Shown in pieces: positions 46,004-47,068 of a DNA stretch of 56,618 nt (position 1 is its first letter; the number at the start of each line of letters is the position of its first letter). The stretch lies in the IMG/VR virus record IMGVR_UViG_3300045391_004489; one strand, given 5' to 3'. The notes below the pieces were generated by a model. It had not been told where the DNA came from, searched no databases, and saw nothing but the letters and a program-made list of their open reading frames with translations. Source of the stretch: a virus. The translations under genes were made by a program, and so were the position numbers.

Positions 46004-47068
46004 GTGTACACCTACACCGCCAAGACGATGTCCGGTCTGCTGGACAGCATGACGCTGGACATCATGAGAGCTCCGTCGGACGAGCTCGACGTCATCTCCA
46101 ACGTCGACGTAGCCAAGCAGAATGTCATGGGCTACGCCGAGCACATGGACTACGAATTCGACCTCAAGACCATCTGGTTGGGTACAGCCCGCTGGTCGAT
46201 GATGGTCCGGCAGTACCTCGATCGTGACGAGGTGATGTCGTGGCTCCACCAGGCCTCCACTAAGATCGGCAAGCGAGGTCGAGGTCAGGCAGTACTTCGC
46301 ACCCGCATCGTTAAGCCCCGAGGTGGCGCCGCAACTGGCCACACGAACATGCAGACCCGCAAGTGGGGATCCTGCATGTTGTCGCTCAGCTACCGAGCAC
46401 TTCCCACACCGACGATCACGCTTCACAGTCGCACCTCGTATCTGGGGTATCTGTCGGCGCTGGACTTCAACATCGCCCACGTCTTGGGCCGGTATCTCGC
46501 CGACCAGATCGGCATCTCAGTCAAGGACATGTCGTTCGTGTGGATGGTTGAGTCAGTGCAGTGGCACGGCTTCAAGTCGCTGCCCTTCGCCATCTGCAAC
46601 AGCGACCCCAAGATCCGCCGATACTACCGACGTCTGCTGACCAAGAAGTTCGACGACTTGGACGCTGAGGAGCTCATCGAGTCCCAGACGCCGGCGATGC
46701 TGGTCACACGTCGATGGGTCAACTATGTCCGTCGGGAGGACCAGGCGGGCATGACTCTCGGCGACACGAACTACAACACTTACCGTCGAGTCCGCCGGCG
46801 GTGGCACACCGAAGTGCTGGGTTACAAGAAGGCCCAGGAGTTCGAGGGGTGGTCCCACGATCGCAACACGGGGGAGCGGAAGGAGTTCTTCAAGGCCTAC
46901 AAGCCTCTGCCCTCCGTCATGACTTCGTCGCTGGATCTGTCGCCGCTCAAGCTCCCGTTCGGGGGGGCATGGGTCTCGAACATCGACCTGACCGAGGACA
47001 TCAACGAGGCTGACACCATGTGCCTCTACTGTGGGGAGACCGAGTATGACGAATGCGAAGAAGACTGA
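46004..47068 (+). CDS. Divergent thymidylate-synthase(ThyA)-fold protein, function unknown
   Basis: By-eye alignment to the ThyA core: WGSCMLSLSY ~ APCHAFFQFY, LHSRTS ~ YQRSC, DFNIAH ~ PFNIAS, DMSFVWMVESVQWH ~ DFVWTGGDTHLY. Confidence 0.6.
   Translation: MYTYTAKTMSGLLDSMTLDIMRAPSDELDVISNVDVAKQNVMGYAEHMDYEFDLKTIWLGTARWSMMVRQYLDRDEVMSWLHQASTKIGKRGRGQAVLRTRIVKPRGGAATGHTNMQTRKWGSCMLSLSYRALPTPTITLHSRTSYLGYLSALDFNIAHVLGRYLADQIGISVKDMSFVWMVESVQWHGFKSLPFAICNSDPKIRRYYRRLLTKKFDDLDAEELIESQTPAMLVTRRWVNYVRREDQAGMTLGDTNYNTYRRVRRRWHTEVLGYKKAQEFEGWSHDRNTGERKEFFKAYKPLPSVMTSSLDLSPLKLPFGGAWVSNIDLTEDINEADTMCLYCGETEYDECEED

Follow-up and report, generated by a model that had tools for sequence, protein, structure and literature searches.

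A divergent ThyA-fold protein family encoded beside a second ThyA homologue in phage nucleotide-metabolism cassettes

To our knowledge, all pyrimidine modifications that phages are known to introduce before replication (5mC, 5hmC, 5hmU and, very recently, 5-hydroxy-C) begin with a homologue of thymidylate synthase. The viral DNA analysed here (IMG/VR record IMGVR_UViG_3300045391_004489; the whole stretch of 56,618 nucleotides is referred to below as the window) had been described as encoding three enzymes of this type, among them a 354-aa protein with a few segments that resemble the ThyA catalytic core when aligned by eye. This raises the question of whether the protein, here called X, belongs to the ThyA fold at all and, if it does, what it might do beside the ThyA homologue encoded just downstream, here called Y. 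The two genes are as follows.

46004..47068, + strand: X, divergent ThyA-fold protein of 354 aa with a GTG start; PHROG 13667, no Pfam or NCBIfam family
47270..48145, + strand: Y, ThyA homologue of 291 aa with Asp at the Asn177 position (dCMP-type); called gene P0270

The X gene and the fold of its product

The 354-aa reading frame has the features of a real gene. A ribosome-binding site, GAGGAA, lies 5 nt before the GTG start, which shares bases with the stop codon of a small ORF just upstream; GC content by codon position follows the pattern of coding sequence (GC3 0.82 versus GC2 0.42), and the identical protein has been called as a gene (P0001) in a public JGI assembly. X gives a full-length HMM match to PHROG 13667 (E 8.8e-99, X residues 1-317 against profile positions 1-295 of 297), while PHROG 34294 takes in its proteobacterial counterparts, and both families are without functional or structural annotation. 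In GenBank, the members from Muddy (gp47), GTE2, Zuko (gp75), Shrew (gp74) and PMBT14 (gp48) carry the label 'hypothetical protein', and the sole functional hint in public records is an entry from Yersinia phage P744, 'pyrimidine hmase synthase'.

The proposed ThyA-fold relationship is borne out by Foldseek searches with an AF2 model of X (pLDDT 88.6, pTM 0.84) and by profile-profile comparison. Against the PDB, the model gave 139 matches at E<=1e-3, and the best 50 of these are all ThyA, dCMP/CMP hydroxymethylases (including MilA) or dCMP hydroxylase (AfhB), with Foldseek probabilities of 0.99-1.00 for the 50 listed. MilA is the top match (E 8.5e-8), accompanied by the dCMP hydroxylase AfhB of phage HY126 (E 2.4e-7) and T4 dCMP hydroxymethylase. 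The BFVD viral library returned the same ThyA-type families, with uncharacterised phage proteins as the best matches. The secondary structure around Cys124 in the model (strand, strand, long helix, strand) follows the ThyA order, and global TM-scores are modest, at 0.3-0.4 when normalised to the query and up to 0.58 when normalised to the target.

At the sequence level, PF00303 matched neither X nor any of 115 family members at E<=0.1, and no informative matches were obtained in Pfam, NCBIfam and PDB sequence or profile searches conducted with X alone, with a shallow alignment of close homologues (A1) or with a diverse alignment (A2). When A1 was compared by hhalign with single sequences, the results were not significant, either for E. 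coli ThyA (E 0.18) or for Y (E 0.27), although the alignment to Y was already in register. Significance was reached only with two diverse profiles, those of the X and Y families (E 3.7e-4), which align with the catalytic residues in register; the hhalign probability is only 36%, and residue equivalences are therefore uncertain beyond the core that runs from the Cys to the beta-strand.

On the evidence of the predicted structure, X really is a genuine, if extremely divergent, member of the ThyA/dCMP hydroxymethylase fold. A coincidental likeness, with X having an unrelated fold, would be in keeping with the lack of HMM-level ThyA matches in Pfam, NCBIfam and the PDB and with the modest global TM-scores, but not with a single superfamily in all 50 matches listed of the 139, with an independent alignment of profiles that superposes Cys, Arg and Asp, or with the ThyA-like order of strands and long helix around the Cys; it is extremely improbable. 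The description of the N-terminal half as unlike ThyA holds for its sequence, which lacks ThyA similarity, yet the model is that of a single confidently folded alpha/beta protein. Two further segments of X are distinctive.

46316..46369, + strand: low-confidence loop of X, residues 105-122, directly before the Cys; an insertion relative to ThyA
47021..47065, + strand: C-terminal tail of X, CLYCGETEYDECEED, consisting of CxxCGE and then acidic residues

The loop has pLDDT values below 50 in the model. Six of its residues (G107, G108, G112, N115, R119 and W121) are invariant in alignment A1, and its columns are mainly gaps in alignment A2, which indicates that it is mostly deleted in distant homologues. 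The Cys-rich acidic C-terminus is present as originally reported; the CxxCGE motif is common to the 10 closest of 77 homologues and found only in these, the remainder ending in a poly-acidic stretch, in which Asp/Glu account for a median of 9 of the last 15 residues.

Conserved residues of the predicted active site

Conservation was assessed in 115 diverse relatives of X, down to 17% identity. The three codons of greatest interest are listed here with their ThyA equivalents.

46373..46375, + strand: codon for Cys124, the predicted C6 nucleophile (Cys146 of E. coli ThyA)
46430..46432, + strand: codon for Arg143, predicted to bind phosphate (Arg166 of ThyA)
46463..46465, + strand: codon for Asp154, at the pyrimidine-specificity position (Asn177 of ThyA)

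Five residues (Y71, G122, C124, R143 and W180) are invariant in 115/115 relatives, followed by Ser142 (114/115), Arg63 (112/115) and Arg262 (105/115); position 144 is Thr in 77 of the 115 and otherwise Val, Ala, Ser or Met. All four segments that the preliminary description had quoted are found in X, and the hhalign register agrees with its pairing of WGSCMLSLSY with APCHAFFQFY, of LHSRTS with YQRSC and of FVWMVESVQWH with FVWTGGDTHLY, so that these three pairings are judged to go beyond coincidence. In the first of these, Cys124 lies opposite the nucleophile Cys of the P-C motif of Y, at the expected start of the central strand; in the second, Arg143, 19 residues after Cys124, lies opposite the Arg in Y's R-[AS]-x-D motif.

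The pairing of DFNIAHVL with PFNIASYAL, from which it had been concluded that the ThyA Asn is retained, is two residues out of register. The Asn in question is at position 156, which matches Ala179 of ThyA and is Ala in 52, Gly in 20, Thr in 17, Ser in 9 and Asn in only 5 of the 115 relatives. It is Asp154 that is placed opposite the Asp at the Asn177 position of Y; it is conserved as Asp in 110 and replaced by Glu in 5 of the 115, and its distance from Arg143, 11 residues, is that from Arg166 to Asn177 in E. coli ThyA. Because the residue at the Asn177 position is Asp154, the active site of X is, judged by its sequence, of the cytosine type, like that of Y, and X is not set apart from its neighbor in the way that had been proposed. 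Asp at the specificity position is the cytosine-type signature in T4 dCMP hydroxymethylase, MilA and N177D ThyA (PMC13326640, PMC8670742).

Elsewhere the ThyA residues are changed or not recognisable. The Asp169 position corresponds to Tyr146 of X, where the six commonest residues among the 115 relatives are Tyr (85), Phe (10), Arg (4), Leu (3), Ser (3) and His (2); Asn, the AfhB-type diagnostic replacement of Asp169, is absent from these six, and the proteobacterial and clostridial versions have Glu. His147 of ThyA is replaced by Met. No recognisable Glu58 or Trp80 folate elements were identified in X, for which the N-terminal alignment is unreliable, and no invariant Arg was found at the place equivalent to Arg126/Arg127, position 93 being Gly in 52 and Arg in 36 relatives. 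The counterparts from Pseudomonas phage PMBT14, Yersinia phage P744, Clostridium phage CPD4 and Brevundimonas phage Polewnik are barely alignable to X; both G-x-C and R-[SAV]-[TC] are conserved in them, as is an Asp located 11 residues downstream of the Arg. X is thus predicted to keep a minimal core for covalent catalysis, consisting of a Cys that would add to C6, a Ser-Arg pair that would hold the 5'-phosphate and an Asp that would specify cytosine.

The partner gene, the cassette and the distribution of the family

The other genes of the window that bear on the function of X are listed below.

17916..18746, + strand: ThyX, flavin-dependent thymidylate synthase (TIGR02170, E 7.9e-55, above cutoff; PF02511, E 2e-48)
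44832..45407, + strand: P-loop dNMP (thymidylate-like) kinase (PHROG 761 'thymidylate kinase', E 1.3e-10)
45404..45892, + strand: all-alpha NTP pyrophosphohydrolase, dimeric dUTPase/MazG-like (Pfam dUTPase_2, E 2e-6)
47046..47270, + strand: small ORF bridging X and Y (74 aa from ATG; 79 aa from a GTG at 47031)
48142..48639, + strand: dCMP deaminase (Pfam PF00383, E 3e-22; PHROG 174, E 3e-49)
49023..51545, + strand: family-A DNA polymerase, fused at its N-terminus to a UDG domain; marks the 3' boundary of the cassette

The Asp-variant ThyA homologue reported next to X is indeed present. Y is matched by Pfam PF00303 (E 2.2e-6), and its best PDB sequence match is the CMP hydroxymethylase MilA (E 5e-6). 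The P-C motif, the R-[AS]-x-D motif and the Asn177-position Asp of Y occur in 9/9 phage sequences inspected, with RHFRDDVYMA as the family consensus for the segment around the Asn177 position, and one of the two trans-acting arginines is kept (T-R-Q instead of S-R-R). The small ORF between the two genes overlaps the end of X, and its stop codon overlaps the ATG of Y (TGATG). No family match for it was found in Pfam or PHROG, and a search of 63 related loci at E 1e-5 gave no homologue; phage Shrew has a 51-aa gene in its place, and in Muddy, Orla and Zuko the stop and start codons of X and Y overlap. X is apparently co-transcribed and translationally coupled with Y, here through the small ORF.

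A survey of related phages, which the preliminary description had recommended, gave a uniform result: Y is downstream of X on the same strand in 58/58 loci with at least 1.2 kb after X, and the same 85 cultured actinophages carry both genes. Apparent cases of X without Y in distant members, on short contigs, were rejected because these contigs stop within about 0.3 kb of X and divergent forms of Y escape the precomputed Pfam annotation; in one locus (L009), a Y missed in this way was recovered by hhalign (E 6e-69). X diverges far faster than Y: the Y proteins of this window and of PMBT14 share about 41% identity, and X is barely detectable between the two. Such a pattern is as compatible with an accessory subunit as with an enzyme.

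The gene order of the cassette is fixed: helicase, dNMP kinase, dUTPase-like pyrophosphatase, X, Y, dCMP deaminase and UDG-fused PolA. The kinase, which has only P-loop matches in Pfam, is present in 58/64 related loci, and the dCMP deaminase in 52/64. The all-alpha pyrophosphohydrolase, which also matches PHROG 12184 (nucleotide pyrophosphohydrolase, E 3.5e-29), is a candidate dCTPase/dUTPase. In Pfam, the polymerase matches DNA_pol_A (E 1e-69), UDG (E 9e-13) and a 3'-5' exonuclease. A scan of 20 further ORFs of the window found no glycosyl-, carbamoyl- or amino-transferase and no 5-HMUDK-type kinase. ThyX was also detected by tblastn with T. maritima ThyX (41.6% identity, E 2.5e-42), and its presence with X and Y makes the earlier count of three thymidylate-synthase-type genes in one genome correct; dTMP synthesis is already covered by ThyX here, and the three genes also occur together in another metagenomic phage (L010).

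The same description had called this gene content unusual, a view that does not survive comparison, as X and Y always occur together in a cassette that is widespread (85 cultured actinophages, 1019 database homologues, 58/58 informative loci). The database homologues of X fall into 225 clusters at 50% identity. Carriers include the therapeutic mycobacteriophage Muddy, and phages of Pseudomonas, Yersinia, Clostridium and Brevundimonas have very divergent counterparts of X upstream of Y. A megablast search with the cassette found no near relative among cultured phages. Among 185,579 species genomes, X had 3 matches, all on MAG contigs of 4.5-61 kb without chromosomal context, and the family is, on these sequence matches, phage-restricted. 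X founds an uncharacterised, phage-only ThyA-fold family; nothing characterising it was found in the literature.

Proposed function and comparison with known enzymes

The observed fold, residue conservation and strict linkage to Y are the grounds from which we infer the substrate and chemistry of X, whether it works on its own or as a subunit partnering Y, and any modification of virion DNA. The most likely reading, held with roughly even confidence, is that X is a dCMP-directed enzyme, or a subunit working with Y, that makes a non-canonical deoxycytidylate. X and Y would operate inside a T4-like cassette that rewires the nucleotide pool through its dNMP kinase, dCTPase/dUTPase-like pyrophosphatase, dCMP deaminase and DNA polymerase. 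X would bind dCMP, or C5-modified dCMP from Y, at the mononucleotide level; Cys124 would attack C6 and Asp154 would protonate N3/N4, whereupon X would carry out or enable a transformation at C5 and, with Y, yield the non-canonical deoxycytidylate. This product would then be phosphorylated by the cassette kinase and incorporated by the phage polymerase. Asp177-type ThyA homologues found together with MazG-like pyrophosphatases and dCMP deaminases show a statistical association with phage contigs whose cytosine is modified (PMC8670742), and the known entry points to 5hmC, 5mC and 5-hydroxy-C are ThyA homologues (PMC13326640). Points that count against this reading are the failure of sequence HMMs to link X with ThyA, the replacement of Asp169, the fast divergence of X relative to Y, the lack of a recognised glycosyl-, carbamoyl- or amino-transferase in the window, and a literature search that turned up no modified cytosine in carrier phages. 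It is possible, as had been suggested, that X performs a new chemistry or contributes to a multi-step modification. A bolder version, tentative and somewhat doubtful, is that X and Y constitute an unrecognised two-component ThyA-fold system for making a non-canonical deoxycytidylate in cross-phylum PolA/UDG-type siphophages, either as a heterodimer or as consecutive enzymes that form C6-thiol adducts, X possibly with a non-folate cofactor.

Enzymes of the ThyA fold function only as dimers, each chain lending arginines to the active site of its partner, and X might instead be a non-catalytic or half-site partner in a putative X:Y heterodimer, its pocket being regulatory or serving for substrate handover. 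The strict adjacency of X and Y (58/58 informative loci), their translational coupling and the much faster evolution of X would all suit such a partner, as would the single trans-acting Arg kept in Y (T-R-Q), for which no invariant equivalent was found in X, and the loss from X of Asp169 and apparently also of the Glu58 and Trp80 elements. Against this, Cys and Arg are invariant and Asp nearly so in all lineages, which matches the needs of catalysis rather than of mere binding, and a non-catalytic or half-site partner role is unlikely. The same residues speak against an inactivated regulatory paralogue, another suggestion of the preliminary description, which is disfavoured.

The cassette might also serve an ordinary supply of dTTP for unmodified DNA, with Y making dTMP directly or via 5-methyl-dCMP and the deaminase and with X as an accessory. 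Its GenBank labels all belong to the thymidylate pathway (thymidylate kinase, dUTPase, thymidylate synthase, dCMP deaminase), and the presence of a UDG-fused polymerase and a dUTPase-like enzyme points to strong selection against uracil. A literature search found no report of modified DNA for these much-studied phages, and none of modified cytosine in Muddy, GTE2, PMBT14 or relatives. However, this explanation leaves the invariant nucleophile of X without a role, dTMP can already be made by the ThyX that both this genome and L010 encode, and position 177 of Y is Asp, not Asn, in 9/9 lineages inspected, a change that experimentally switches the enzyme to dCMP and is linked with modified contigs (PMC8670742, PMC13326640); plain dTTP supply is accordingly judged distinctly unlikely. 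The remaining proposal is that X is a uracil-type C5 enzyme, such as a dUMP hydroxymethylase, beside a cytosine-type Y, so that two pyrimidines would be modified. This reading rested on the retained Asn, and X does have a confirmed ThyA fold and reads D-F-N-I-A where ThyA reads P-F-N-I-A, but the Asn is misaligned by two residues and occurs in only 5/115 relatives, the family-conserved specificity residue is Asp154, and neither the 5-HMUDK kinase nor the aGPT-Pplase of 5-hmdU processing was detected in the ORFs scanned. A uracil-type X is very improbable.

A whole ThyA-fold family with an intact Cys/Arg/Asp core has thus gone unrecognised, named 'hypothetical protein' nearly everywhere; its link to ThyA is invisible to every sequence model, and it is always coupled to a second homologue of the cytosine type. 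If X is active, either a novel nucleotide chemistry or a heteromeric architecture new to this classic enzyme family would be predicted, together with modified cytosine in model phages and in the clinically used Muddy. Should the two-component version be true, cytosine modification, possibly of a new chemical type, would have gone undetected in Muddy, GTE2, PMBT14 and Clostridium perfringens phages. Modified cytosine would bear on restriction and CRISPR evasion, on the behavior of the DNA in sequencing and on phage engineering.

Of the characterised enzymes, E. coli ThyA (PF00303) has in common with X the fold, the equivalents of Cys146, Arg166 and Ala179, and the F-V-W ... H strand after helix J. 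X differs in having Asp for Asn177, Tyr for Asp169 and Met for His147 and in having no Pfam match; the Glu58, Trp80/Trp83 and Arg126/Arg127 pair of ThyA were not identified in X, where the N-terminal alignment is unreliable. MilA, the CMP 5-hydroxymethylase of mildiomycin biosynthesis (PDB 5JNH, 5B6D), is the best Foldseek match (E 8.5e-8), shares the cytosine-type Asp and is of similar length (316-342 aa), but as a whole it superposes poorly on X (rmsd of 15-18 A across about 340 columns), and it is a cellular biosynthetic-cluster enzyme acting on a ribonucleotide, whereas X is phage-restricted.

AfhB of phage HY126 (PDB 9IQU/9IQC) has the best TM-score with X among the PDB targets (0.58, target-normalised; rmsd 5.7 A). 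Like X, the flavin-dependent 5-hydroxy-dCMP synthases to which it belongs (AfhB, RB69 gp48, DLP3 gp80) have a compact ThyA core, which in their case acts on dCMP, and they provide a precedent for the ThyA fold abandoning folate one-carbon chemistry (PMC13326640). Their diagnostic signature is a change of Asp169 to Asn in an otherwise recognisable ThyA sequence (PMC13326640), whereas X has Tyr at this position (Glu in distant versions) and is missed by PF00303. Arabinose or glycosyl-transfer genes were not found in the window.

The T4 dCMP hydroxymethylase gp42 (PDB 1B5D, 6A9A) shares with X the ThyA fold (Foldseek E of about 1e-5), the Cys nucleophile, the subsequent Arg and the cytosine-specific Asp at the position equivalent to Asn177, and both are encoded with a dCTPase-like pyrophosphatase, a dNMP kinase and a dCMP deaminase. 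X departs from it in lacking HMM-detectable sequence similarity, in having Tyr in place of Asp169 and Met as the residue after the Cys, and in carrying an 18-residue loop before the Cys and, beyond the core, an extension of about 130 residues that is mostly helical. Finally, gp42 works alone as a homodimer, whereas X invariably comes with a second ThyA homologue.

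Gene X and its family

The window, with portal and tail, lysis and replication modules, appears to be an almost complete phage genome, and no near relative was found among cultured phages at the DNA level.

Features of the window
17916..18746, + strand: ThyX, third thymidylate-synthase-type gene
41240..41794, - strand: free-standing uracil-DNA-glycosylase (UDG)-superfamily gene
44832..45407, + strand: P-loop kinase
about 45900..46004, + strand: small ORF, hydrophobic peptide
46004..47068, + strand: X, 354 aa, GTG start
47046..47270, + strand: small ORF, 74 aa, basic
47270..48145, + strand: Y, PF00303 E 2e-6, best PDB sequence match MilA
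49023..51545, + strand: family-A DNA polymerase, N-terminal UDG domain (PF03167, E 9e-13)
51542..52594, + strand: 350-aa ORF

The GTG of X is closely preceded by a GAGGAA ribosome-binding site, and the contrast between its codon positions (GC3 0.82 vs GC2 0.42, in a window of 60% GC) is typical of coding sequence. An identical protein is called as a gene on a 56.8-kb contig from a public JGI assembly (P0001). X is coupled to two small ORFs: the terminal TAG of the upstream one overlaps the X start, and the 74-aa ORF bridges X and Y, overlapping the end of X and, through its TGA, the ATG of Y. No homologues of either could be detected; Shrew and Orla phages have small genes at matching positions. 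Elsewhere, a perfect hexanucleotide tandem repeat (GGAGAT x 5.7, 9393..9426) lies in a region with no other assignment, and an imperfect 30-nt repeat occupies 11843..11910.

A word-indexed search detected 1019 X homologues, and an exhaustive search gave 225 clusters at 50% identity. Across 115 full-length representatives, with identity down to 17%, Tyr71, Gly122, Cys124, Arg143 and Trp180 are invariant, and Arg63, Ser142, Asp154 and Arg262 are at least 90% conserved. Conservation of the 18-residue low-confidence loop that precedes the Cys is confined to close relatives. The C-terminal tail (residues 340-354; 47021..47065, + strand) contains a CxxCGE motif; in a set of 77 homologues the 10 closest share it, and all others have a poly-Asp/Glu tail, with a median of 9 acidic residues among the last 15. 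These acidic tails may resemble those that tether phage replication proteins to one another.

The family appears essentially phage-restricted; all three of its matches among 185,579 species genomes lie on MAG contigs (4.5-61 kb) in non-chromosomal context. The 85 cultured-phage records are from Gordonia (68), Mycobacterium (9, including Muddy and FF47), Streptomyces (4), Microbacterium (2), Curtobacterium (1) and Mycobacteroides (1). A literature search found no paper characterising the family.

Fold and predicted active site

Searches of Pfam, NCBIfam and PDB with X alone, a 77-sequence profile or a 115-sequence profile returned no matches, none of the 115 family members matched PF00303, and the sole family match of X was PHROG 13667 ('unknown function', E 8.8e-99). 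An AlphaFold2 model built from 77 homologues is confident (pLDDT 88.6, pTM 0.84, 279 residues at 90 or above), and a Foldseek comparison with the PDB gave 139 matches at E<=1e-3. The 50 listed are all thymidylate synthases, T4 dCMP hydroxymethylase, MilA or AfhB; the best is the CMP hydroxymethylase MilA (8.5e-8), with AfhB, the flavin-dependent dCMP hydroxylase of phage HY126, at 2.4e-7 (top target-normalised TM-score 0.58). A viral structure library also returned ThyA homologues, its top matches being 'uncharacterized' phage proteins, one of them from Pseudomonas phage PMBT14. In the model, the elements around the Cys follow the ThyA order of strand, strand, long helix, strand. Alignment of a diverse X alignment against that of Y (hhalign, E 3.7e-4 across the catalytic core) provides independent, profile-level support for the ThyA fold. 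Since both structure and profile-profile comparisons recover it, the relationship proposed from motifs by eye in the preliminary description is real, and not a coincidence that such searches fail to reproduce.

The same alignment pairs Cys124 with the nucleophile, Arg143 with Arg166, Tyr146 with Asp169, Gln186 (or His188) with His207, and Asp154 with the Asn177-position residue, which is the specificity Asp of Y (E. coli ThyA numbering for the latter residues). The 11-residue spacing between Arg143 and Asp154 equals that between Arg166 and Asn177. To our knowledge, the Cys/Ser-Arg/Asp constellation, which is conserved in X, makes up the pyrimidine mononucleotide site and performs Michael addition at C6 in every characterised relative.

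The earlier motif reading was largely correct, except for one motif: the Asn described as retained, from which it was suggested that X could be uracil-type, is two residues out of register, and Asp154, not residue 156, lies at the Asn177 position. Position 156, which would correspond to ThyA Ala179, is variable among the 115 sequences (Ala 52, Gly 20, Thr 17, Ser 9, Asn 5); position 154 is Asp in 110 and Glu in 5. The Asp at this position argues that X is cytosine-type, as are Y, T4 gp42 and MilA. The role of the Asn177 position in specificity is experimentally established, according to work cited in PMC13326640 and PMC8670742.

Pairing with Y and the gene cassette

By sequence, Y is a recognisable ThyA homologue that keeps the P-C nucleophile and an R-x-x-D motif, and therefore Asp169. 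In each of the nine lineages inspected, its Asn177 position is Asp. One of these proteins is Muddy gp46 (L002), which is annotated 'thymidylate synthase' and which, given this Asp, is predicted to act on dCMP instead of dUMP. An orphan QueC-like PP-loop protein has been mentioned in Muddy (PMC6884629); neither protein has so far been linked to DNA modification. Cultured records of Y equal those of X for the genera named in the Y tally, plus 31 others.

Profile HMMs were used to scan 64 loci from cultured phages, IMG/VR, other metagenomes and MAGs. Wherever the sequence reaches at least about 1.2 kb past X (58/58 loci), Y follows X on the same strand, and the six exceptions are contigs ending at X or just after. 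The genomic coupling of X to a second cytosine-type enzyme is obligate, and the pair, also present in the 85 cultured records, is not the unusual gene content first suggested. The cassette has one fixed gene order, running from the SNF2 helicase through the P-loop dNMP kinase, the all-alpha dUTPase/MazG-like pyrophosphatase, X, Y, the dCMP deaminase and the UDG-fused PolA to the Cas4-like nuclease. The X stop and Y start codons overlap in Muddy, Orla and Zuko.

The count of three thymidylate-synthase-type enzymes holds, as ThyX, X and Y are all present. ThyX lies 28 kb from the cassette, adjoining virion-structural genes, and among cultured phages it is best matched by the ThyX proteins of Streptomyces phages (about 55% identity); the same set occurs in the metagenomic phage L010, with ThyX just upstream of the helicase. 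The string RHRLISEPIYS in the P-loop kinase mimics the ThyX RHRxxS motif by chance and could mislead a motif-based reading.

The free-standing UDG gene is 7 kb upstream of the polymerase on the opposite strand; two UDGs and a dUTPase-like enzyme suggest strong exclusion of uracil. The 350-aa ORF directly 3' of the polymerase has a weak PIG-V-type (GT-C) mannosyltransferase match (E 1.3e-6, no individually significant domain) and no homologues in 63 related loci, and might be a host cell-envelope modifier. No group-transfer enzymes that would act downstream in a modification pathway were recognised within the window.

Four of the 31 additional Y-carrying phages were inspected; all have, immediately upstream of Y, a gene for a 249-279-aa 'hypothetical protein', one labelled 'pyrimidine hmase synthase'.

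Divergent counterparts of X
L011, 4147..4935: Pseudomonas PMBT14
L012, 4211..5044: Yersinia P744
L013, 3618..4367: Clostridium CPD4
L014, 3587..4426: Brevundimonas Polewnik

The two tested with hhalign, from PMBT14 and P744, are barely alignable with X (E about 2e-3). All four retain G-x-C, R-[SAV]-[TC]-E, an Asp 11 residues past the Arg and R-x-Y, with Glu, not Tyr, at the Asp169 position. PMBT14 gp48 is probably the protein ranked third by Foldseek in the viral library, as judged by equal length and description. Both proteins scanned (PMBT14 and P744) belong to PHROG 34294, so PHROG 13667 and PHROG 34294, both of unknown function, are probably parts of a single superfamily. The occurrence of divergent X upstream of Y in these four phages indicates that the pair is ancient and crosses host phyla.

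Possible roles of X

X may bind dCMP or the product of Y, with Cys124 and Asp154 activating C5, and would thereby contribute to synthesis of a non-canonical dCMP. It could do so as a separate second enzyme or as the catalytic subunit of an X/Y heterodimer, and the invariant nucleophile favours catalysis; it could alternatively be a regulatory half-site partner. A role as a partner subunit is favoured by the faster divergence of X than of Y, the loss of Asp169, and the lack of an invariant Arg where ThyA gives Arg126/127 in trans. Speculatively, the conserved Arg262, which lies on a basic helix within the C-terminal extension, might take the place of these arginines in cis.

ThyA-fold enzymes can change cofactor and chemistry, as in flavin-dependent 5-hydroxylation with its D169N signature (PMC13326640), and phage contigs with modified cytosine are enriched in Asp177-type homologues accompanied by MazG-like pyrophosphatases and dCMP deaminases (PMC8670742). 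The X family is widespread and forms a branch of the ThyA superfamily that had gone unrecognised; it has a predicted catalytic core of the cytosine type, is firmly tied to a second ThyA homologue, and is of real interest for the study of phage DNA modification. The cassette mirrors the logic of T4, with its dCTPase, dCMP-modifying enzyme, dNMP kinase and dCMP deaminase, and the dCTPase of T4 is probably in the all-alpha pyrophosphatase superfamily too, like the cassette enzyme.
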